In this document: in pieces, positions 7,575 through 49,558 of the stretch | Position numbering within the stretch: position 1 is the stretch's first letter | Layout: every line of letters starts with the position of its first letter | Origin: a bacterium | GTDB taxonomy: Bacteria > Verrucomicrobiota > Verrucomicrobiia > Chthoniobacterales > JAFAMB01 | Assembly: GCA_046727495.1 (NCBI GenBank) | Contig: JBKPCS010000077.1 | Coordinates: 1-57,815 of the forward strand | Reading direction: 5' to 3' | DNA length: 57,815 nt | The notes under the pieces: model-generated | Told to the model about the DNA's origin: nothing | Database searches by the model: none | The model's input: the letters and a program-made list of their open reading frames with translations, nothing else | Program-made: the position numbers and the translations under genes

Positions 7575-8222
7575 ATGGGTTTGGAGCAAAGTCGAAAGTG
7601 GAAGAGATGGGGCTGGTTTTTGGTGAAGCTGGCCTTCGTTATTGTGGCGTCGGGCGCGACAGCTATCTGCTACCTGATAGTGCGATCACAGGATCCGTTG
7701 TACGTCCTTCGCGAACTTAAGAATTGGGCGGACTATCGACGGTTTGACGCGCTGATTGCCAATGTTGGGAAACAATACAATGTCGACCCGCGCCTGATCA
7801 AAGCCGTCGTGTGGAGAGAGAGCCGGTTCCAAGCTGACATGGTTGGGCGTCACGGCGAACGCGGTCTCATGCAGGTCTCCGAAGTCGCCGCGCGCGATTG
7901 GGCCATCGCTAAAGGGGTTCCGAATCCGTCGCCGGAACAATTGCTTCAGCCTGAACTGAACTTGGAGGTTGGCAGCTGGTACCTGGGCAAAGCTGTACAA
8001 CGTTGGAATAGCCAGGATGATCCGGTGCCCTTCGCTTTAGCCGAATATAATGCCGGCAAAAGCCGGGTAGATCGCTGGATCCGGTTGGCGGCCCAGAAAT
8101 CGAATGGGCAACCCGTAACGTCGGCAAGGTTCCAGGACGCGATCGATTTTCGTTCGACCGCCCGTTACGTCCGCACGATCCTGGCCCGGTACGATTTCTA
8201 CAAACGAAGAGGCCCGTTGTAG
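7575..8222 (+). CDS. Membrane-anchored lytic transglycosylase (SLT domain)
   Basis: N-terminal TM segment; AVVWRESRF, GLMQV, NLEVGSWYL, ALAEYNAG, TARYV. Confidence 0.92.
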   Translation: MGLEQSRKWKRWGWFLVKLAFVIVASGATAICYLIVRSQDPLYVLRELKNWADYRRFDALIANVGKQYNVDPRLIKAVVWRESRFQADMVGRHGERGLMQVSEVAARDWAIAKGVPNPSPEQLLQPELNLEVGSWYLGKAVQRWNSQDDPVPFALAEYNAGKSRVDRWIRLAAQKSNGQPVTSARFQDAIDFRSTARYVRTILARYDFYKRRGPL

Positions 8223-8352
8223 CCCCGAAAGGCTTCGGGGCTGTTATCGGTTATCGGTTTTCCGTTTTCGGTTTTCAGTTCTGGCCCCGGACCACGCATG
8301 AGCGGAGCCCCACCAACCGAAAACTGAAAACCGAAAACTGAAAACCGATAAC
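8221..8352. repeat. Composite element: GCCCCGAA hairpin plus inverted arms of degenerate (GTTTTCG)n heptamers
   Basis: Hairpin overlaps the slt stop; left arm GTTATCG GTTATCG GTTTTCC GTTTTCG GTTTTCA (8243-8280); right arm AACCGAAAACTGAAAACCGAAAACTGAAAACCGATAAC (8315-8352). Confidence 0.85.
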
Positions 8353-8366
8353 TAACGCCGAAGGCC

Positions 8367-20158: not shown

Positions 20159-20408
20159 CCTACGCTTTTACCCCGGCGGCCTACCCATAACGCATTTTCT
20201 ATGGTTGGTCGAGGAATTAACGCTGTCAGCCGCCTTCGCTAAGGCTGCGGAGGACAGGCCGCCGGCATCGCCGCAACGACGGGAGTGAACACCGGATTGG
20301 GACGCCTGGAACGGCCCTGCGGGCGATGAAAATGCCCTTATTTGATCTTGTCTGGCTAAATTTTGGACCAGGTGCGCCGAATTCAGATGGGGGGAGACAC
20401 GTCGAAAC

Positions 20409-21256: not shown

Positions 21257-21616
21257 ATGCAGTGTAAAACGATAGCAGCCTGCCTGCTCGTCTCGCTTTT
21301 TTTCTTAAGTGGCTGCGCTTTACACCGGCGCCAGACCCAATCTACCGCGCCGGGGTATCCGCCGGTCTCGCAAAGTTCTGTTCAATTCTTCATGCGAAGG
21401 CCGCAGGGACAGTTCATCAAAATTGGAACAATTGCTGTTCAGCAAGACGCTGCTATGCCGATTGAGCCGGTGTTGAAGAGCGTACGGGCAAGCGCTGCGG
21501 AAAGCGGGGCAAATATTGTGGTACAGCTCGGTGATCAGTCTCGCTTCGCGATTAATGGCAAATTTCAACCTATCAATCTGCGGCTGATCAGCTTTCTGCT
21601 GTTGCGGCGTTATTGA
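21257..21616 (+). CDS. Small lipoprotein, hypothetical
   Basis: Lipobox LSGC after a hydrophobic stretch; R..AA..GAN.VV pattern. Confidence 0.7.
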   Translation: MQCKTIAACLLVSLFFLSGCALHRRQTQSTAPGYPPVSQSSVQFFMRRPQGQFIKIGTIAVQQDAAMPIEPVLKSVRASAAESGANIVVQLGDQSRFAINGKFQPINLRLISFLLLRRY

Positions 21617-21618
21617 TG

Positions 21619-21659
21619 GGCGCTGTAGGGCGGCAGAGGCCTGCCGCCCCTACAGCGCC
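21619..21659. repeat. GTAG-type REP palindrome
   Basis: GGCGCTGTAGGGCGGCAG-AGG-CCTGCCGCCCCTACAGCGCC; further copies at 45330-45408 and 24743-24766. Confidence 0.8.
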
Positions 21660-21811: not shown

Positions 21812-22786
21812 ATGAAAAAACAGTTCCTCCACGGCGGCCTGACGCTCGTCCTGGCTGCTGGAATTATTGGTACGGCTTGCGCACAAGAGTTGCCAAAACT
21901 AAAAGAAAAGAAGAGTTACAAGGTCGGCTTTTCACAAACCGAATCAAATAACCCCTGGCGTCTGGCCGAGACTGAAAGTGTCAAATCAGAGGCAGCAAAA
22001 CGAGGCTACCAATTCGTTTACACCGATGCAGCGGGCTCAGCCGCTAAACAGGTAGCCGACGTAAACAGTATGATTGCCCAAGGTGTCGATATCATCTTTC
22101 TCGCTCCCCGCGAAGAAAAACCGTTGGTCCCTGCGGTGATGGCGGCCAAGAAAGCCGGGATTACCGTCATCTGTCTTGATCGGCGCGTCGACGAAACAGT
22201 AGCCAAACCTGGTCGTGATTATTTGACCTTTATTGGCTCCGACTTCATTGACGAAGGAAAGCGTGCCGCCGAGTGGCTGGCGAAAAAAACAAACGGCAAG
22301 GCGACGATCATTGAGCTGCAAGGGACAACTGGGTCTTCGCCGGCACACGATCGCCAAGCCGGTTTCATGGAGGCTTTGAAGAAGTATCCCGACATGAAGG
22401 TGGTAGCTTCGCAAAGCGGCGATTTTGCCCGGGACAAAGGACGCCAGGTTGCGGAGACGTTGTTACAAGCGCATCCAGACGTTACAGCGATCTACGCGCA
22501 TAACGATGAAATGGCTTTAGGCGCGATTGCCGCGCTGGAAGCGGCCGGTAAAAAGCCAGGCAAAGATGTTATCGTTGTCAGCATTGACGGCGAAAAAGAT
22601 GGTTTGCAAGCGATCGTGGATGGAAAGCTGAATTGCACAGTTGAGTGCAATCCGCGCCTCGGGCCGAAAGGATTTGATGCAATGGAGGCTCACGCGAAAG
22701 GCAAGAAGATCGACAAATGGATCAAGAGCGACGACCGGCTCTTCGATGATAGCAACGCGAAAGACCACGTCGCCGAGGCATATTAG
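21812..22786 (+). CDS. ytfQ: Sugar ABC transporter substrate-binding protein (galactofuranose YtfQ-like)
   Basis: Signal peptide; VGFSQTESNNPWRLAET, IGSDF..EGKRAA, LQGTTGSSPA.DR, AHNDEMALGAI, VECNPRLGP. Confidence 0.88.
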   Translation: MKKQFLHGGLTLVLAAGIIGTACAQELPKLKEKKSYKVGFSQTESNNPWRLAETESVKSEAAKRGYQFVYTDAAGSAAKQVADVNSMIAQGVDIIFLAPREEKPLVPAVMAAKKAGITVICLDRRVDETVAKPGRDYLTFIGSDFIDEGKRAAEWLAKKTNGKATIIELQGTTGSSPAHDRQAGFMEALKKYPDMKVVASQSGDFARDKGRQVAETLLQAHPDVTAIYAHNDEMALGAIAALEAAGKKPGKDVIVVSIDGEKDGLQAIVDGKLNCTVECNPRLGPKGFDAMEAHAKGKKIDKWIKSDDRLFDDSNAKDHVAEAY

Positions 22787-22846: not shown

Positions 22847-22964
22847 CGTTATTCGTGATCCCTGATCCGCAAATCGTCAGCTGTAGCGTCAGATTTACGC
22901 TAGGGTATGTTTCGGGCTTTTGGGATTACGGATTGCGGACTACGGTTTAGGGCTTAGCGAATCG

Positions 22965-25712
22965 ATGACGCCGATGGCCCCCACTAGCACTAGCGCCAAC
23001 ACTAGCACTCTCCCCGCGCCTCTCCTCCGGATGCACGGCATCGACAAAAGCTTTAATAGCATCCCGGCCCTAATTGGCGCCTCTCTCGAGGTTGAGGCCG
23101 GGGAAGTACATGCCTTGATCGGTCAAAACGGAGCGGGCAAATCCACCCTGATCAAAATTCTGACCGGTTACTATTCCAAAGACGCTGGAGAAATAGTGTT
23201 CAACGGCGCTCCGTTCTATGCGAGCTCGCCCAAGGCTGCGCAGGAAGGCGGCATCAGCACGATCTATCAAGAGATCAATCTCATCCCGTACCGGTCGGTG
23301 GCTGAGAACATATTTCTGAGCCGCGAACGGCGACGATTTGGGTTTCTCGATTGGGCGCGGATGCATCGCGAAGCGGAAGAGTTGTTAAGCCACTTCCGAA
23401 TCAAGGTGGATGTACGGCAATCACTGTCCCAATGCAGCACGGCGATCCAGCAGATGGTGGCAATCGCGAGAGCGGCTAGTTTCGATTCGAAGCTGGTGAT
23501 TATGGATGAACCGACATCGTCGTTGGATGATCACGAGGTCGCCGTGCTTTTTCAGGTAATCCGCCAACTTAAGGCGTCGGGTGTCTCTGTAATTTTCGTG
23601 AGTCACAAACTCGATGAGCTCTACGCTGTTTGTGATCGCGTCACCGTGATGCGTGATGGAAGAACGGTTGTGACTGGATCGCTGACTAGCTTGTCAAAGT
23701 TGTCTCTGGTGACAACAATGATTGGGCGGGAACTGGAATCAGCCACCAGTCATCAAACAGCTTTTGCTGAAGTGGGGAGCGCGAAAAACCGCATCGCGGA
23801 TAATTCGCTACTCTCTGTTCGGAATCTGTCGCTTGGACGACGGGTCAGTGACGCGAACCTCGAAGTGCGTGCGGGTGAAATTGTCGGTCTGGCCGGATTG
23901 CTCGGTTCTGGACGAAGTGAAATAGCCCGAGCGGTTTTTGGTGCCGATCGGCTAGATAAAGGCGCAATGGAGTTTAACGGGGCCTCATTCACTCCAAAAG
24001 CGCCAGCTAGCGCGATCGGCGCTGGAATTGGCTATTGTTCTGAGGATCGAAAATTTGACGGGATCGTTCCGGACCTGTCTGTGCGCGAGAACTTGACTCT
24101 TGCGTTGCTGCCCCTTTTAGCAAGAACCGGCATAGTAGATGAGAACGAACAGGCGAAAGTTGTAGAAAAGTTCGTCCAGCGGCTCGGCATCAAATGCGCG
24201 AGCGTCGATCAGCCGATCCGTGAATTGTCGGGAGGCAACCAGCAGAAGGTCTTGTTGGCGCGCTGGCTCTGTCTGAATCCACGACTGTTGATTCTGGATG
24301 AACCGACTCGCGGGATTGACGTCGGCGCAAAGGCCGAGATTCAAAGTCTTATCGCCCAGCTTGCGATAGATGGTCTCGGCGTCCTGATGATCTCCTCAGA
24401 AATGGAGGAAGTCGTAGAGGGGTCAGATCGAGTTTTTGTCCTGCGTGAGGGCCGCACGGTCGCGGAATTCTCGGGCGACCAGATTGATGAAGAATCGATC
24501 GTGGCTGTCATGGCCGATGGCACGGCGGCACTTCAGGCGCGGGTGCCTGCTGCGCCGGCTTCTACAAACGGATCTCTTCCGGAGAGCGACGCTTCCGGCT
24601 TGGCTAAAGACAACGGCCAGATCCAATCACTTTCGCCGCCGGATCAAGCAACCGCAGCGGTGATCCCGCCATTGCGGGAGCCTTTAGATCAAGCAGCGGT
24701 GGTGACGGAGCACCGCCCTCCGGTTAGAACCCCTGGGGTTTCGGCGGCAGGGCCTGCCGCCCTACATCGATTCAGGAGGCTGCTAGCCAAGAACGGGACT
24801 CTGGTTGCCTTGTTGCTGTTGATCGTTTTTAACCTTATCTGGACGCCGCATTTTCTGAGCTGGCAGACTCTGAACGTTAACCTGACTCAGGTTTGCAACA
24901 TTGTGATCGTCGGCGTTGGGATGACGCTTGTGATCGGTACGGGTGGCATTGATCTATCTGTCGGCTCGTTGATGGCGATCGCGGGCGCGCTGGCGCCGCT
25001 GATTTTCTTGAATAAATCGATCCCACCCGGCTGGGGCGTGCCGCTAGCATTTGTCTTGCCGGTTCTTGTCTCGGGGCTCTTTGGATCTTTTAACGGATGG
25101 CTTGTGACCCGGTTCCGGATTCAGCCGATCGTGGCAACGCTCATCCTTTTTATTGCCGGCCGTGGGATTGCTCAGGTGGTAACGAATGGAAATCTCCAGC
25201 CGTTCAGTATGCCGGCTTTTCAGGTGATTGGACTGGCGCGTCCCTTCGGAATTCCTCTGCAGGCGATACTGATGCTGTTGATTGTTGCGGTGGCCGTCTG
25301 GACTCTTCGATTCACAGTATTCGGTCGGCAACTGGTGGCGGTGGGCGGGAACGAAGAAGCGGCCCGGCTCTCCGGAGTCCCGGTCAGTCGCGTAAAGTTA
25401 GCAGTCTATCTGATCAGCGGCCTCTGTTCCGGGCTGGCCGGTCTGATTGTAATCGCGATCAATTCATCCTCCGATGCGAACCTTGTCGGCCTGGGCATGG
25501 AGCTCGACGCGATCGCGGCAGTGGCGGTCGGTGGGACACCGCTGACCGGGGGGCGCGCCTCGGTGGTAGGTACATTGATCGGCGCACTAATTATCCAGCT
25601 GGTTCGCTACACGCTCCTGGCAAACGGAGTTCCCGACGCCGCAGCCCTGGTAGTGAAAGCCGCAATCATCATCGGCGCCGTGTTCATTCAACAGAAAGGA
25701 GCCGCCCGCTAA
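22965..25712 (+). CDS. Fused sugar ABC ATPase (two NBDs, YtfR-like) and permease (YtfT-like)
   Basis: GQNGAGKST, IMDEPT, GLLGSGRSE, LSGGNQQKV, ILDEPTRGIDVGAK; ~90-aa Pro/Ala linker; permease GGIDLSVG, GGNEEAARLSG, ELDAIAAVAVGGT in a single frame. Confidence 0.9.
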   Translation: MTPMAPTSTSANTSTLPAPLLRMHGIDKSFNSIPALIGASLEVEAGEVHALIGQNGAGKSTLIKILTGYYSKDAGEIVFNGAPFYASSPKAAQEGGISTIYQEINLIPYRSVAENIFLSRERRRFGFLDWARMHREAEELLSHFRIKVDVRQSLSQCSTAIQQMVAIARAASFDSKLVIMDEPTSSLDDHEVAVLFQVIRQLKASGVSVIFVSHKLDELYAVCDRVTVMRDGRTVVTGSLTSLSKLSLVTTMIGRELESATSHQTAFAEVGSAKNRIADNSLLSVRNLSLGRRVSDANLEVRAGEIVGLAGLLGSGRSEIARAVFGADRLDKGAMEFNGASFTPKAPASAIGAGIGYCSEDRKFDGIVPDLSVRENLTLALLPLLARTGIVDENEQAKVVEKFVQRLGIKCASVDQPIRELSGGNQQKVLLARWLCLNPRLLILDEPTRGIDVGAKAEIQSLIAQLAIDGLGVLMISSEMEEVVEGSDRVFVLREGRTVAEFSGDQIDEESIVAVMADGTAALQARVPAAPASTNGSLPESDASGLAKDNGQIQSLSPPDQATAAVIPPLREPLDQAAVVTEHRPPVRTPGVSAAGPAALHRFRRLLAKNGTLVALLLLIVFNLIWTPHFLSWQTLNVNLTQVCNIVIVGVGMTLVIGTGGIDLSVGSLMAIAGALAPLIFLNKSIPPGWGVPLAFVLPVLVSGLFGSFNGWLVTRFRIQPIVATLILFIAGRGIAQVVTNGNLQPFSMPAFQVIGLARPFGIPLQAILMLLIVAVAVWTLRFTVFGRQLVAVGGNEEAARLSGVPVSRVKLAVYLISGLCSGLAGLIVIAINSSSDANLVGLGMELDAIAAVAVGGTPLTGGRASVVGTLIGALIIQLVRYTLLANGVPDAAALVVKAAIIIGAVFIQQKGAAR

Positions 25713-25776
25713 CAACATTGGTCCCATTGGTCGTATACGTCCCATAAGTCCTATCCGCCCCATCCTCCCATCTCCC

Positions 25777-26760
25777 ATGAGCAAAGCGCAAAAAGATCCG
25801 ACCAGGATCGTTCGATTGATCAGCCAAAACAGTGTGCTGATCGCGCTCGTTCTGCTGATTGTGTTCGGTAATTTACGCTACGAAAACTTTCTTGGGACTT
25901 ACAATGTTCTCACATTCCTGCGCTACAACTCAATGTTTGCGCTGGTATCACTCGGGATGTGCTTTGTGATCATGAGTGGTGGCATCGATCTCTCAGTGGG
26001 CACGACCGCAGCCTTGGGAAGCGTCGTTTCGGCGCTTCTTAGTCCGTTCGGTGTGTGGGCTGGGCTAGCCGGCGGTGTTGGTGCGGGGGCCGTTATGGGA
26101 TTCCTGAACGGAACTATCATTACTCGGCTGAGAATTCCGCCCTTCATTTCGTCTCTTGCAATCATGCTGGCGGCGCAAGGTACTGCCTTGTTGTTATCGC
26201 ATAATCAGTCGGTCGCTGTTTCGTACGACACCGATTTTACTGTTATCGGTCAGGGCGATTTTCTCGGCTTCCCGATTCCGGCTTGGATTGCAGCCGTTGC
26301 CTATCTCATTGGTGCGATCTGCCTGAACTTGACCGCTTCTGGTAGATACGTTCTGGCGATCGGGGGAAACGAAGAGGCTGCGCGGCTGATGGGCCTGGGA
26401 GTAGATCGGAGCAAGTTCTTTCTTTATCTCATCAGCGGTGCGTTGTCTGGTTTGGCTGGAGTCATTCTTGCGGCCCAGTTCGGAGCGGGACAACCAGTCG
26501 AAGGGGTCGGCTGGGAATTGTTTGCCATTGCATCGGTCGTAGTCGGAGGAACACTCCTGACTGGCGGTCAAGGCTCGGTTCTCACGACGCTTGCCGGTGT
26601 TCTGCTGCTCGGCCTGATCTTCAATATCCTGAATTTCGAGAACGGGCTTGGCTGGATCAGTCTCTCAGCCTACTGGCAATCGGTTATTCGAGGCGTTTTC
26701 CTGATGATAGTCGTGATTTTTCAGTCCCGACTAATGGTGAGAAAGAGAGCGTCTTTCTAG
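25777..26760 (+). CDS. yjfF: Sugar ABC transporter permease (YjfF-like)
   Basis: SGGIDLSVG, AIGGNEEAARLMGL, GWELFAIASVVVGGTLLTGGQG. Confidence 0.88.
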   Translation: MSKAQKDPTRIVRLISQNSVLIALVLLIVFGNLRYENFLGTYNVLTFLRYNSMFALVSLGMCFVIMSGGIDLSVGTTAALGSVVSALLSPFGVWAGLAGGVGAGAVMGFLNGTIITRLRIPPFISSLAIMLAAQGTALLLSHNQSVAVSYDTDFTVIGQGDFLGFPIPAWIAAVAYLIGAICLNLTASGRYVLAIGGNEEAARLMGLGVDRSKFFLYLISGALSGLAGVILAAQFGAGQPVEGVGWELFAIASVVVGGTLLTGGQGSVLTTLAGVLLLGLIFNILNFENGLGWISLSAYWQSVIRGVFLMIVVIFQSRLMVRKRASF

Positions 26761-27803: not shown

Positions 27804-28832
27804 ATGCACCTCGGCTCACTCAAACCAGATTCCGCGGACGCTGCGTCTAACCTCGCTTCCTGGATTCTTGCGGGGCTTGCACTCTTTTTGGTGCTTTATC
27901 TGCATCTCTTCCCGGCGCTGGCCGCCGGTTGTCTAGTGTACCAGCTTGTTCAGCTAGCGGTTCCGCTCATCCAGCGACGTCTGTCGGGTCCGCGATCGCG
28001 CTTGGTCGCGGTAGGTGGTCTGGCGATCGTTACTGTTGGGATCGTTACTCTCGCGATATTTGGAATCGTCGCTTTTCTTAAGAGTGAAACCGGAAACCTG
28101 GAGGTCCTTTTCCAAAAGCTGGAGCACATTCTCATCGAGGCTCGCACCAAGGTGCCAGCCTCCGCGGCGGATTATTTGCCCGGTAATGTTGACGATCTAA
28201 AAGCGATGGCGTCGGACTGGGTTGGCGAACACTCAAAAGAAGTCCAGATGCTGGGCAAAGAAGCGATGCGTGTGTTTGTGCGAATGCTGATCGGGATGGT
28301 GATCGGTGCGCTGATCTCGCTGCATGAAGGCGGACCGGCCTTCTTCGCCACGCCGTTTATTGCGGCGCTGACAAACCGCGCCACTCGATTCGGAGCGGCC
28401 TTCCGAAACATTGTTTTTGCGCAGATCAGGATCTCCGCGGTCAACACCGTTCTAACTGCGATCTTTCTTTTGGTCATTTGCCCTCTCTTCGGGGTCCAAT
28501 TGCCATTAGCCAAGACGTTGATCGCCGTCACATTTCTGGCCGGTCTGCTGCCAATTATCGGCAACCTGATTTCAAATACCGTAATCGTGACCGTCGCTCT
28601 TTCAGTATCGCTGACCGCCGCGGTTGGTGCGCTCCTATTCCTGATCTTGATCCACAAGCTGGAATATTTTCTAAACGCCAAGATTGTCGGTTCCAGGATC
28701 CATGCACACGCCTGGGAGCTCTTGTTGGCGATGATTACGCTGGAAGCCGCATTCGGCGTCGCCGGCCTCATCGCTGCTCCAATCTACTACGCGTACATCA
28801 AGAGCGAACTCGCTGACGCGAAGCTGATATGA
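27804..28832 (+). CDS. AI-2E family transporter
   Basis: TM-rich; AQIRISAVN, GLLPIIGNLI, KLEYFLNAKIVG, FGVAGLIAAP. Confidence 0.88.
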   Translation: MHLGSLKPDSADAASNLASWILAGLALFLVLYLHLFPALAAGCLVYQLVQLAVPLIQRRLSGPRSRLVAVGGLAIVTVGIVTLAIFGIVAFLKSETGNLEVLFQKLEHILIEARTKVPASAADYLPGNVDDLKAMASDWVGEHSKEVQMLGKEAMRVFVRMLIGMVIGALISLHEGGPAFFATPFIAALTNRATRFGAAFRNIVFAQIRISAVNTVLTAIFLLVICPLFGVQLPLAKTLIAVTFLAGLLPIIGNLISNTVIVTVALSVSLTAAVGALLFLILIHKLEYFLNAKIVGSRIHAHAWELLLAMITLEAAFGVAGLIAAPIYYAYIKSELADAKLI

Positions 28833-28911
28833 AGGAGACAGGAGACAGAATACAGGAGACAGGAGATGGGCCGGGAACCTCTTGTATTCTGTATTCTGTC
28901 GCCTGTATTCT
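28833..28911. repeat. Heptamer (GGAGACA/GAATACA)n inverted-arm element
   Basis: GGAGACAGGAGACAGAATACAGGAGACAGGAG ... TATTCTGTATTCTGTCGCCTGTATTCT; near-identical left arm at ~21137-21170. Confidence 0.8.
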
Positions 28912-28916
28912 TGACC

Positions 28917-32374: not shown

Positions 32375-32545
32375 CCCCGAAAGCTTTCGGGGCCCGTTAT
32401 CCGTCCACCGTCAACAGTCCGCCGTCCACCGTTACCGATGTCTGACAACGCTCACCAACGGAAGGCGGAAGACGGTAGACAAAAGACGGAAGACAGGGGA
32501 CGAAGGACGGAAAACGGTCGACGGAAGACGGTAGACGGTAAACGG
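32375..32545. repeat. CCCCGAAAGCTTTCGGGG plus inverted heptamer arms enclosing the permease start codon
   Basis: Left arm (CCGTCCA)n 32401-32437; ATG 32438; right arm (GACGGAA/GACGGTA)n ~32458-32545 is translated. Confidence 0.8.
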
Positions 32546-33421
32546 GCGCCCGCAGACGGGCGCCTTCTTCCCTACCTCCTCATTGCCCCCGCATTTCTCC
32601 TCGCTTTATTCATCGTCAGTTACCCGTTTATCGACATCTTAAGGACCGCGACTCATGAAGTCACCCGTTTCGGGATTCTGGTCCGTGCGAACGGAGTCGA
32701 CAACTTCCTTAAGGTCTTTGCCGATCCTCTCTTCAAGGCGTCTCTCTACCGAACCTTGTCATGGACAGGCTTGGTCGTCGGCGGCACCGTTCTAATTTCA
32801 TTGCCGGTTGCGATTCTTTTGAATCTGCCGTTTCACGGGCGGGCGATTGCCCGAGCGATCATCATGCTGCCTTGGGCAGTTTCTCTCACAATGTCGGCGG
32901 TGGTTTGGCGTTGGGCGTTCAATGCGGAATACGGAATGGTGAACGCATCTTTACAGCGGCTCGGGATGATCTCCGGTCCAATAGCCTGGTTAGCCTCGGC
33001 TGAGCTCGCATTTCCAATTGAGATAGCAGTAGGCATCCTCGTCTCGATCCCGTTTACTACCACCGTCTTTCTGGGCGGGCTCTCTTCCTTGCCCCAGGAT
33101 ATTTACGAGGCAGCTCGGCTTGAAGGTGCATCAACGATGCAGCAGTTCTGGCATCTGACGTTTCCTTTAGTCAGGCCGTTCATCAACATCGCGATCGTTC
33201 TGAACGTGATTTATGTGTTCAACTCGTTTCCAATCATCTGGGTGTTGACCGAGGGTGGCCCGGCTGATAGCACGCACATCCTGGTGACGTATCTGTACAA
33301 GCTGGCATTTCGCCTCGGCCGAATCGGTGAGGCGGCCGCGGTTTCCACCGTAATGCTGCTGATGTTGTTCGTGTTCACAGCCATTTATCTGCGTCTTCAA
33401 GGGAAGGAGAAGAAAGTATGA
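32438..33421 (+). CDS. Carbohydrate ABC transporter permease (MalF-like)
   Basis: G.DNF..VF.DP, LPWA, EAA loop [17 protein letters not shown]. Confidence 0.93.
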
Positions 33422-36105: not shown

Positions 36106-37761
36106 TCAACGACGGCGGTGACGGAGCACCGCCCTCCAGGTAGCCTGCACTTGCAACAGAGCGCTGATTTGCAGGAGCGAATAAGTGGGTAAAAAGAAAC
36201 GGGCTGCCGCAAATGAGGTTGCGCAGGTCGCAAGTGAAATCAGGATCGCAGTTGCGAGTGATGCCATGGAGTAAGAAACAACGGTTAATCCGTTCGCAGT
36301 CCGCAAGGCAAACGCCGCAAGCACAATCGTGATGGTTGCGAACCAAACCATTGGGACGCCGTTGAAAACGTGAAAATAAGGCTGCCTCTTCCAGATCTGT
36401 TCAAAATAACCCTCGGGATGCTGAAACGAGGCCAGCGGCTTCAGACGGGCGTACCTTGGAAAGTCGATTTGAGTACGCAGCCAGTCTGTTAAGATGAATG
36501 GAGGATTCGCCAAGTCGGCCTGTGAATAGGACCAGATGTTGGAGAAATCGGTCCACACGGCCTTCAGATAGTGCGGTTCGAGTGATAACAAAACGTATCG
36601 TGCAATCCGATTGAGTTTGAGATCGATTTGATTGGTCCGGACCTTGGCGTCATTGACACCGGATCTGACGAGAATGTCATCGATAGAGTAGAACAAAAAC
36701 ATGTCAGTCCATTTGTCGCCGTTGCTAAGAGAGCGATTCAGTTGCTCAAGCGCTTCGGCGATGACCGGATCTCTTAGGTCCTTACTCATTTTTTCCAAGA
36801 TGGCGGTCCGTTCACTGACTGAAAGCGATTGGAGGTAACTAAGCCGCCACTCAAATGTCTCGCCGAGCGTAGATCGGTATGGAACCCGGAACAGCAAGCA
36901 CATGGTCTGTTGAATCAAGATCGAACCGACAATCGCGAGAATACCGATGCCGGTGAAGACTAAGAACTTCCGACCGTAGCTGTTGCCGGTTGGATTGCTG
37001 GCGGTCTTGCGTCCACGCCAGAGCAGTACGGAGCCCCACAAAACCAATGCTGATATCGGCAGAGTCGCCGCAAAAATATTATTGATCTGCCTGGTCAATG
37101 TGGCCGCGAGCAGAACCGCAAAGAAGATCCAGACATGGCTTCGTTTCGGAGCATTCGACCCGGATCCGGGCGTTTCAATCGCAATCGGCTGCGTGTCGCG
37201 CCGGTCCAAACATTTCCATCCAAGCGCTACGATCAGTATCACAAGCGGATTACTGAACGCTTCGCTTCCAACACAGTTAGCGAAGATGTACAGCCACGGC
37301 GTCAGCGCAAAAACCAGAGCGAACAGAAGCCGGAACAGGAATCTGTCTGTTAAGGAGCAGATCAGATACCAAAGTGCAAACACCAGGAAGAGGTGTTGCA
37401 CGACAATCAACGCATAAATCCCTACGTCGCTCAGAGCCGGTGTGCCGAGTGAAAGATAGGGCAAGCCCTTTCCCTGCAAGAGGTTGCCGACAATCCCTGC
37501 GACAATGACAATGAGCCGCCCAAAAAAACAATAGCCCGGCAGCCAATGAATGATGCCTTTCGGTGCGAACGTCGAAGAAATCTGATTGAACCCGTCCGAA
37601 TCACGCCAAAGCGGCGGCACCGTCAGAAGAACGTAGATCGATGGAACTACCAGAATCAGCGGAACAAGCCAATCATCTAGGCCGATACGCCGACGCGCCG
37701 GTTCGCCGGCAGCTTGCCCTTGGTCTGTCTTGAAAATCGGATTAGCTTTCTGTCGCTCCAT
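36106..37761 (-). CDS. Polytopic membrane protein, putative GT-C glycosyltransferase (paralog of 12860..14497)
   Basis: PPLWRDSD after TM1, many TMs, large loop; start uncertain. Confidence 0.75.
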   Translation of the reverse strand: MERQKANPIFKTDQGQAAGEPARRRIGLDDWLVPLILVVPSIYVLLTVPPLWRDSDGFNQISSTFAPKGIIHWLPGYCFFGRLIVIVAGIVGNLLQGKGLPYLSLGTPALSDVGIYALIVVQHLFLVFALWYLICSLTDRFLFRLLFALVFALTPWLYIFANCVGSEAFSNPLVILIVALGWKCLDRRDTQPIAIETPGSGSNAPKRSHVWIFFAVLLAATLTRQINNIFAATLPISALVLWGSVLLWRGRKTASNPTGNSYGRKFLVFTGIGILAIVGSILIQQTMCLLFRVPYRSTLGETFEWRLSYLQSLSVSERTAILEKMSKDLRDPVIAEALEQLNRSLSNGDKWTDMFLFYSIDDILVRSGVNDAKVRTNQIDLKLNRIARYVLLSLEPHYLKAVWTDFSNIWSYSQADLANPPFILTDWLRTQIDFPRYARLKPLASFQHPEGYFEQIWKRQPYFHVFNGVPMVWFATITIVLAAFALRTANGLTVVSYSMASLATAILISLATCATSFAAARFFLPTYSLLQISALLQVQATWRAVLRHRRR

Positions 37762-43916: not shown

Positions 43917-45335
43917 ATGAAATGGAGCCTGCTCTACCTCATTTCTGAATGGGTGATTAGGCTGGGAATGCTGGTTTACGTACCGCAACGGCGACCGCCG
44001 GCAGCGGCGCGTACCTGGCTCCTGTTTATCTTTCTCCTCCCTTGGCCGGGTTTGCTGCTGTACATTCTCTTTGGGCGAATTTATTTACCTGCGCGCCGCA
44101 AAGCGCTCCAGGAACGCGCTTCCAGATTTATTCGGCAAGCGCAGGCTCAGATCGGCTCGCGGATTACGTCGGAGCCACGGTTGCCTGCTAACCTTGCGCC
44201 GATTCCTGAAATTGCCAGGCGCTTGGGCGACTTTGCCCCCTTTGGCGGGAACGCTATTGAAGTCTTAACTGATTATGCGGGGGCGATCGATCGATTGATT
44301 GCCGATATCGACTCAGCTCAACACCACGTTCATCTGCTCTTCTATATCTATGAACCCGATCAAACCGGGGAACGCGTCACCCAAGCGCTCATTGGCGTTG
44401 CGGCCCGTGGGGTTCAATGCCGGGTCTTGTTGGACGCGTTTGGCGCGAAACGCGGCTTGCGCCGACTTGGGCCGGCCATGCGCGCAGCCGGAATCGAAAC
44501 AGTCGCAGTTCTGCCCGTCGGATTGTTTCGGCGAAAAGCGGCGCGATTTGATCTTCGAAACCATCGTAAAATCGTTGTTATCGACGGTCACATCGGGTAC
44601 GTCGGCTCGCAAAACATCGTAAACCCGGGATTTGTGAGAGATCACCCCAATGAAGAGTTGGTGGTTCGATTAACTGGGCCGGCAGTTGCCCAGTTGCAAG
44701 CCGTGCTCCTGGCGGATCGCTACTTTGAGACGGAGGACGTGCTGGAATCACCACATCTGTTTCCGAAACCTGTACCGGTTGGGAACTCAGAGGTACAGCT
44801 TGTGCCGAGCGGGCCAGGCTACGGACGCGAGAACGGCCGTGATCTCATTATTTCGCTGCTATACGGAGCCCGGGAAAGAATCACGATAACTACTCCCTAC
44901 TTTGTCCCCGACGAACCTTTCTTGCAGGCGATCCGCGCTGCCCGCCTGAACCGAGGGGTAGCAGTTCATTTGATCCTTTCATTACACGCGAACCAATTGA
45001 TTACACAACAAGCTCAACGCTCTTACTTTGATGACCTGTTGGATGCGGGGGTGAAGATCCATTTATACAAACCGCGGTTCTTACATGCGAAATACCTTAC
45101 GATCGATCGAGACTTGGCGATGGTTGGGTCGACCAATATGGATATTCGTTCCTTTGCCCTGAATGCGGAGATCAGTTTGCTGATTTATGACAGGGAAGTG
45201 ATTGAAAAAATCTGCGCGCTTCAGGAGGAGTGTATCGAGCGCTCGGTCCCGGTTCTGCCGGAGGAATGGGAGCGACGATCGCTTATTGCCAGGGTGATAC
45301 AGAACACCGCGCGGTTAATGGATTCGTTCCTGTAG
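43917..45335 (+). CDS. cls: Cardiolipin synthase
   Basis: Two N-terminal TMs; two HKD motifs RNHRKIVVIDG and LHAKYLTID; TPYFVPD, GSTNMDIRSF.LN.E. Confidence 0.95.
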   Translation: MKWSLLYLISEWVIRLGMLVYVPQRRPPAAARTWLLFIFLLPWPGLLLYILFGRIYLPARRKALQERASRFIRQAQAQIGSRITSEPRLPANLAPIPEIARRLGDFAPFGGNAIEVLTDYAGAIDRLIADIDSAQHHVHLLFYIYEPDQTGERVTQALIGVAARGVQCRVLLDAFGAKRGLRRLGPAMRAAGIETVAVLPVGLFRRKAARFDLRNHRKIVVIDGHIGYVGSQNIVNPGFVRDHPNEELVVRLTGPAVAQLQAVLLADRYFETEDVLESPHLFPKPVPVGNSEVQLVPSGPGYGRENGRDLIISLLYGARERITITTPYFVPDEPFLQAIRAARLNRGVAVHLILSLHANQLITQQAQRSYFDDLLDAGVKIHLYKPRFLHAKYLTIDRDLAMVGSTNMDIRSFALNAEISLLIYDREVIEKICALQEECIERSVPVLPEEWERRSLIARVIQNTARLMDSFL

Positions 45336-45408
45336 GGCGGCAGAGGCCTGCCGCCAGGGGCTGCGGCGTCCCTGGGCAAGGGCGACAGGGTCTGCCGCCC
45401 TACAGCGC
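45330..45408. repeat. GTAG-type REP doublet supplying the cls stop codon
   Basis: CTGTAGGGCGGCAGAGGCCTGCCGCC ... GGCGACAGGGTCTGCCGCCCTACAG; the TAG of GTAG is the cls stop (45333-45335). Confidence 0.8.
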
Positions 45409-49383: not shown

Positions 49384-49388
49384 GAAAG

Positions 49389-49549
49389 GTTCCGGGTTCC
49401 GAGTTCCGAGTTTCGGGTTCCGAGCTTTCTCCTGTCCGGACGTATTTTTCGTTCCTGGCGATCGGCGGTTTTCTCGTCCAGCCAACGCAGGCGTGTCGCA
49501 ACGGGTCATTGCGCGGAACTCGGAACTCGGAACCCGGAAGCCGGAACCG
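49389..49549. repeat. Heptamer (GTTCCGA)n inverted-arm element inside the T6SS operon
   Basis: GTTCCGG GTTCCGA GTTCCGA GTTTCGG GTTCCGA ... CGGAACT CGGAACT CGGAACC CGGAAGC CGGAACC; related runs at 26790, 31031, 39031 and 53405. Confidence 0.8.
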
Positions 49550-49558
49550 AGCATCGGT

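Follow-up and report, generated by a model that had tools for sequence, protein, structure and literature searches.

In-frame palindromic repeats in the predicted disordered linker of an older sugar ATPase-permease fusion

Contig JBKPCS010000077.1 of assembly GCA_046727495.1, from a soil bacterium, was analyzed over positions 1 to 57,815 (the window) and carries an open reading frame (ORF) in which the ATPase and the first permease of a sugar importer of the ATP-binding cassette (ABC) type are joined by a long linker. This linker holds in-frame pieces of three families of palindromic repeats, and probably of a fourth, termed A, B, C and D. A preliminary description of the window had offered two origins for it: intergenic repeat DNA exapted as a protein linker, or repetitive extragenic palindromic (REP) elements inserted in frame into a linker that was already flexible. 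The comparison with relatives favors the second, as the fusion is family-wide and older than the repeats. The explanation favored here, to which we assign a probability of roughly 0.8, is that an old fused importer possessed a linker, predicted to be disordered, that later took up palindromic repeats in frame, most likely as tolerated passengers. The fused gene, its domains and the elements of its linker are arranged as follows (positions in the window).

22965..25712, plus strand: fused CUT2-type sugar ABC ATPase-permease gene, 915 aa; frame open from TTG 22920, ATG start as in P0001
23022..24515, plus strand: two ATPase (nucleotide-binding) domains in tandem; YtfR is the best NCBIfam model (582.8 bits, cut-off 850)
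24522..24752, plus strand: predicted disordered linker, comprising residues 520-596 of 915 (AlphaFold2: predicted local distance difference test, pLDDT, below 50 and no secondary structure)
24581..24593, minus strand: first piece of the left arm of the A inverted doublet; GGAG-headed family, decayed here and intact in congeners L002 and L118
24594..24629, plus strand: in-frame insert of 36 nt that divides the left A arm; similar to family D (L117 24.0 bits, window 8.8 bits)
24630..24641, minus strand: second piece of the left A arm
24659..24680, plus strand: C-like hairpin, matching the inner hairpin of family C
24697..24721, plus strand: motif A, right arm of the doublet; read as the peptide AVVTEHRPP
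24722..24742, plus strand: spacer confined to this species, with GGGT and a few more bases at its end
24743..24766, minus strand: motif B, a GTAG REP with an 8-bp stem and a 3-nt loop; read as the peptide SAAGPAALH
24882..25679, plus strand: permease domain BPD_transp_2

The age of the fusion relative to the repeats carries the argument. The junction between ATPase and permease is crossed without a stop in 10 of 60 relatives, of which 2 are congeners and the other 8 genomes represent six further genera (in one, a contig end cuts the match), and the best 88 database homologues (862-925 aa, coverage at least 94%) are all full-length fusions. A quick tree built without the linker places 34 fused proteins apart from 3 unfused ATPases (Shimodaira-Hasegawa-like approximate likelihood ratio test, SH-aLRT, 99). 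The peptide motifs of A, B, C and D are absent from all 76 fused homologues outside the genus clade. When six linkers of other genera were searched against their own genomes, none revealed a repeat family (L007, and five whose best non-self match had E 0.005 or weaker); the linker of a congener (L002), used as a control, finds many A copies in its own genome, down to E 3e-7. One relative (G012) has the fusion and 137 A matches in its genome, yet no A in the linker. ATPase and permease are separate genes at 69 of 80 more distant loci and fused at 1, the remaining 10 being unresolved. For 63 of the 69 split pairs, the closest start codon that the permease could use either overlaps the stop of the ATPase or is at most 20 nt away from it, which leaves little or no intergenic DNA to exapt. 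Exaptation of intergenic repeats is not supported as an account of the linker; in-frame insertion into a flexible linker is the alternative that finds support.

The dimensions and the evolution of the linker agree with this order. Between fixed anchors the median distance is 616 nt in repeat-free fusions from outside the genus, 582-648 nt in A-bearing fusions and 475 nt in split genes. Because A-bearing and repeat-free fusions are alike in this respect, the repeats appear to have replaced linker sequence rather than supplied it. The ratio of non-synonymous to synonymous substitution rates (dN/dS) is 0.40-0.75 in the linker against 0.07-0.10 in the domains (four pairs, which are not independent), as expected of translated, weakly constrained sequence. 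Repeat-like sequence makes up 132 of the 245 nt between 24522 and 24766 (~54%), a larger share than the preliminary description had recognized.

That the ATPase and permease sequences form one ORF, as first described, is confirmed: the frame is free of stops from 22965 (ATG), and indeed from the TTG at 22920, to 25712, and encodes two ABC_tran stretches and one BPD_transp_2 domain. An assembled contig from an independent sequencing run (X5; 4 kb, depth 39.5) covers positions 24400-24950 as a single stretch that differs by 24 substitutions and by no gap. It shows neither a frameshift nor a stop between the domains (the latter judged from the 22 of 24 substitutions that are listed, 2 not being in the list), and since it spans the linker without a gap the ORF is not an assembly artefact. 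Runs X1-X4 and X6-X8 cover the linker region partially or not at all, and none of the 20 runs listed was an RNA data set. The repeat peptides recur unchanged in kind in four further members of the 915-aa protein cluster (P0122, P0130, P0131 and P0134), whereas anchoring did not succeed for a fifth (P0129). Scanning metagenomes for the linker by pattern found nothing, and scanning by protein retrieved 8 loci, the sister species L117 among them.

The repeats themselves are genuine dispersed families. In this genome (3.93 Mb, from an assembly that is 87% complete), motif B has 31 exact copies, and degenerate patterns recover 98 merged copies of B, 22 of A and 18 of the C hairpin, each with 0 in the reversed genome; a weight matrix at 20 bits finds 31 copies of A (control 0). 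The motifs are therefore repeated well beyond the linker. Motif B has the structure of a GTAG REP, with the tetranucleotide directly 5' of an 8-bp stem with a 3-nt loop, on the minus strand. Its copies are dispersed as 79 intergenic, 13 across a gene edge, 5 at gene ends and 1 internal, and 65 of the 98 are paired (27 inverted pairs), as in REPINs; the copy in the linker is a singlet. Family A is a GGAG-headed relative of B with a similar outer stem. It lacks the canonical GTAG, its head being GGAG in nearly all copies, and it is found as 22-31 dispersed palindromes that include five intergenic inverted doublets of 74-84 nt, two of them of 84 nt. Family A thus behaves like a GTAG REP yet is a variant family. 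Family D has 70 copies, of which 5 are nested inside other repeats (4 in B loops and 1 in an A loop).

Gene-internal copies are rare. According to our own hexamer gene caller (3,720 genes, 82% coding), used in place of a standard annotator, the internal copies number 1 among 98 for B, 3 among 22 for A and 1 among 18 for the C hairpin, and the transporter linker accounts for the internal B, the internal C and one internal A. The idea that family A is especially prone to enter genes was rejected: 4 of 31 A copies against 1 of 98 B copies are internal in this genome (Fisher p 0.012), but the tendency finds no general support in G012, where only 1 of the 30 exact A copies examined (the matches total 137) is placed deep within a long open frame.

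Most of what had been said of the individual motifs holds. Motif A at 24697-24721 is identical to 36113-36137 at 24 of 25 positions, with 1 of 25 differing, and the two peptides are read in frame as proposed; a peptide related to AVVTEHRPP occurs in 13 of 15 proteins of the genus clade. The extra hairpin TCCCGC-CATT-GCGGGA does match a repeat, the inner hairpin of family C, and is bordered by a short direct duplication (24642-24662 and 24687-24701). Motif B was placed correctly and is a repeat; the copies at 21624 and 45331, given earlier as its reverse complement, belong to a longer-loop variant instead of being exact. A spacer end of the GGGT type also lies just upstream of 18 of the 31 exact B copies, and by this resemblance positions 24722..24742 are likely a remnant of a B doublet spacer.

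Related linkers suggest an order for these events. In two congeners (L002 and L118) a whole inverted A doublet lies in frame (25 + 34 + 25 = 84 nt), both arms scoring 25.6-32.3 bits; L003 has one good A arm and one decayed, and in 14 linkers from outside the genus A arms reach at most 8.0 bits. On this evidence the linker would have acquired the A doublet, in frame, early in the history of the genus clade. The sister species L117 is 94.5% identical to the window at the nucleotide level. In both, the left A arm is split by exactly 36 nt, and when one excision is allowed the arm scores 25.1 and 33.2 bits, against 1.8-19.7 bits in 10 control linkers treated in the same way. The right A arm is not intact in L117, which is most simply read as a 36-nt deletion. 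B and the perfect C hairpin are confined to the species of the window. At the B site, L117 has the ancestral sequence in common with L002, L003 and L118, and elsewhere in their genomes the relatives G001 and G002 have 12 and 25 copies of B. Downstream of the right A arm, some 47 ancestral bases have given way to 41 here, including B and the likely spacer remnant (net -6 nt). In L117 the site agrees with the final stretch of B in 11 of 15 positions, which suggests that B arrived by replacement at a partly matching site. The ancestral sequence of the B site was considered as an older REP of another family and rejected, as G001 and G002 have a single copy of it each and G000, G005 and G022 have none.

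The following course would account for these observations. The fusion may have arisen from a frame-joining insertion or deletion at the overlapping stop and start of the ancestral split genes. A and B would have been spread by REP-associated tyrosine transposases (RAYTs), and only those events would have survived that kept the frame and added no stop, here of 84, 36 and net -6 nt. B would have entered by replacing ~47 ancestral bases at a site partly matching its 3' end and not by clean insertion. Selection would act on the open frame and roughly on the length of the linker, not on the sequence of the repeats.

Several observations weigh against this account. In the X5 strain the 70 nt of the repeat cores carry 0 changes and the remaining 201 nt carry 13 (Fisher p 0.024), a contrast that is inflated because the cores are defined by their match within this genome. 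Protein P0015 is without A and nested among A-bearing proteins; its placement is weak (support 86), and so the point at which A was gained is uncertain. The 36-nt insert matches D with 24.0 bits in L117, and the 8.8 bits of the window fall below the null maximum of 9.3 (300 coding windows), so that the D label rests on the sister species. Compared with L117, the C hairpin differs by three adjacent changes that perfect the palindrome here; either a C-derived piece or template-switch repair may have produced such a hairpin. None of the 3 loci with a Y1 transposase in this 87%-complete genome is flanked by A or B, and the mobilizing enzyme is therefore only inferred. Finally, among 197 copies of A, B and C, members of different families are neighbors within 300 nt only in the transporter linker, a unique clustering that random tolerance does not obviously predict.

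In a stronger version of events, the linker is a hotspot of unrelated families that target one another, with D inserting into the A loop and B overwriting the sequence right after the A head by conversion-like replacement, and the hairpin ahead of the first membrane helix was recruited for the control of translation or of the mRNA. If so, the linker would have been rewritten repeatedly from mobile DNA at about constant length. We regard this version as unlikely. An RNA- or DNA-level job, for which the hairpins are kept, is unlikely too: they might delay the ribosome, or serve in the protection or processing of the mRNA, ahead of the first membrane segment, which would let the ATPase domains fold before membrane insertion. 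B does lie directly before the predicted helix leading into the permease, linker fold z-scores range from -2.2 (the window) to -2.6 when L002 and L118 are included, and both the unchanged cores in X5 and the exclusive meeting of three families in this linker would fit such a job. However, z is only -0.6 in L117 and -0.5 in L003 and lies above -2 in 11 of 12 linkers from outside the genus, the A arms are decayed or split in several lineages, and the repeat at the permease end varies between lineages.

Reading through intergenic repeat DNA, so that the repeats created the fusion, is very improbable. Such an origin would explain why ~54% of the linker is repeat-like and why the anchor distance is longer in fused proteins than in split genes (median 612 vs. 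475 nt), and it is possible that the ancestral linker contained very old repeats that can no longer be recognized; against it stand the genera that have the fusion with none of these repeats in their linkers and the closely abutting or overlapping stop and start of 63 of the 69 split orthologues. Chance matches or a repeat-caused assembly artefact can hardly be credited at all, being refuted for A, B and the ORF by the 31 exact copies of B against 0 in the reversed control, the independent gap-free contig and the four further 915-aa proteins with the same peptides, and this explanation remains only for the labels C and D, the D match of the window lying within the null range and the C match possibly being template-switch repair. 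The later uptake of repeats by an already fused importer thus remains the preferred explanation.

With regard to the transposases, B flanks were found neither at the 3 Y1 loci of this genome nor at 31 Y1 loci of nine relatives, these genomes being incomplete. In a related genus, a RAYT-like gene (G007:C56:9820-10083, L157) has GGAG-headed A variants on both sides and scores 78.6 bits with NF047646, just under the cut-off of 80; its homologue in the congener G001 scores 77.6 bits and has no A flanks. From its flanks, L157 is a candidate transposase locus for family A. Separately, a 149-aa Y1 transposase gene flanked by inverted family C repeats is present at G000:C94:96700-97150 (L032) and in G002:C156 (L133). 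It matches the IS200 model (59, cut-off 55) and not the RAYT model, and family C has ~65-69 copies genome-wide. Another Y1 transposase gene (G000:C63:6475-6915, L033) lies in two reading frames, apparently frameshifted, and is without A, B or C flanks.

Intragenic REPs as such are already published for this phylum. GTAG REPs within genes were reported to be most numerous in the verrucomicrobium Opitutus terrae, in some of whose proteins, such as Oter_1797 (residues 606-612 and 628-651), one region holds two repeat families, and in-frame inserts were proposed to be neutral owing to their position in flexible linkers or loops (Di Nocera, De Gregorio and Rocco, 2013, PMC3733652). The present case resembles these in its phylum, as judged by the labels of homologues, and in having GTAG stem-loops or doublets in frame in proteins. 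It differs in that three to four nested or replacing events are ordered by sister genomes, and in that the host is the linker of a gene fusion. It also differs in the GGAG head of family A, a word absent from the main text of that paper; A or B may match a family in its Figure 1 or supplements. Literature searches for GGAG, REP and RAYT together (whole words) and for Chthoniobacterales with REP returned no paper.

Inverted doublets are the usual REPIN unit, and singlets have been read as doublet remnants (Bertels and Rainey, 2011, PMC3116915); the biochemistry of TnpA-REP is described in PMC8266576. The families of the window are like REPINs and RAYTs in that most B copies (65/98) are paired and in that a related genus has a gene resembling RAYTs between A-type repeats. 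In contrast, the linker copies are coding, no cognate RAYT of A or B was found in the incomplete genome, and B apparently replaced sequence. Palindromic selfish DNA translated in frame is also known as the Rickettsia palindromic elements, whose effect was neutral or slightly harmful where tested, in gmk (Delihas, 2008, PMC2229807; Delihas, 2011, PMC3184786). These share the in-frame translation of palindromic selfish DNA with the linker; they measure 105-146 bp and are often intragenic, as against 22-84 nt and rarely intragenic here (1 of 98 B internal). Notable here are the three to four nested, datable layers and the apparent replacement-type arrival of one REP. The linker is a well-dated case of selfish palindromes turning over a disordered linker without breaking the gene. 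The comparison with the sister species suggests that one REP came in by replacing DNA that it matched in part, a point relevant to the mode of REP spread, which is still an open question. The age of the fusion, for its part, is a warning not to assume that a linker full of repeats gave rise to the fusion around it.

The importer is encoded in one operon and has the composition of carbohydrate-uptake systems of the RbsA/YtfR type: a Peripla_BP_4 binding protein, a tandem ATPase and BPD_transp_2 permeases. We take it to be of the class CUT2 (as RbsABC). Close homologues are labeled Verrucomicrobia or Chthoniobacterales in the database. The order of binding protein, tandem ATPase and two permeases is that of the Escherichia coli YtfQ-YtfR-YtfT-YjfF importer, from which it differs by the joining of the ATPase to the first permease. 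The best NCBIfam models are YtfQ for the binding protein and YtfR for the ATPase. All four equivalogs of this galactofuranose importer score below their curated cut-offs (YtfR 582.8/850, YtfT 185.1/535, YtfQ 264.2/510, YjfF 185.5/363). The genes are like ytfR and ytfT, as the preliminary description had it, at scores below the equivalog level. An internal permease start behind the AGGAGG at 24774 was rejected, as the window has no start codon at a suitable distance from it. Rfam gave 0 matches between 22700 and 26000, and nothing relevant on fused sugar ABC ATPase-permeases was found in the passages of PMC3924187 that were searched. The neighboring transporter genes and the other repeat copies mentioned above are these:

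21624..21648, plus strand: B-family copy, longer-loop variant, between an ORF ending at 21616 and the binding-protein gene
21812..22786, plus strand: periplasmic sugar-binding protein, YtfQ-like (264.2 bits, cut-off 510)
25777..26760, plus strand: second permease of the same transporter, unfused
36113..36137, plus strand: another A copy, in the last codons of a minus-strand gene (own gene caller)
45331..45404, no strand assigned: B-family inverted doublet

Fusions of ATPase and permease seem to recur. One orthologue of alphaproteobacterial type (L076; 1 of 70 resolved loci) is fused across a short junction, and paralogues that are 33-35% identical have long open frames in this family (G009:C2, G017:C6, G026:C409, G027:C246 and G002:C39).

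Repeat-like sequence was also seen in other genes. A sigma-54 regulator contains a strong copy of A (38.8 bits; G000:C65:3273-3297, L035), in frame and placed after its AAA+ lid and before its Fis-type helix-turn-helix; this copy is read in the same frame as A in the transporter linker; no orthologue of this regulator was found at E 1e-80 in 5 relatives. A loop of GyrB holds a weak 48-nt A-like doublet (16 and 20 bits; G000:C94:74585-74632, L162), of which a shorter version occurs in two congeners, the peptide being absent from four genomes of other genera. An A-like sequence of 28 bits (G000:C107:37197-37221, L036) is located in the N-terminal region of GrpE before the Pfam domain, and also in the congener G002. 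In the NAD-dependent DNA ligase, a copy of B (G000:C113:5857-5947, L164) is read as part of the C-terminal tail that follows the BRCT domain. Copies of D occur for example at positions 20230, 29710 and 38833 of the window and on contigs C234, C39, C198 and C26, many of them among arrays of short words. Intergenic arrays of 6-9-nt words, often as inverted pairs, occupy positions 8220-8355, 25712-25769, 28823-28912, 32401-32558 and 49388-49553 of the window.

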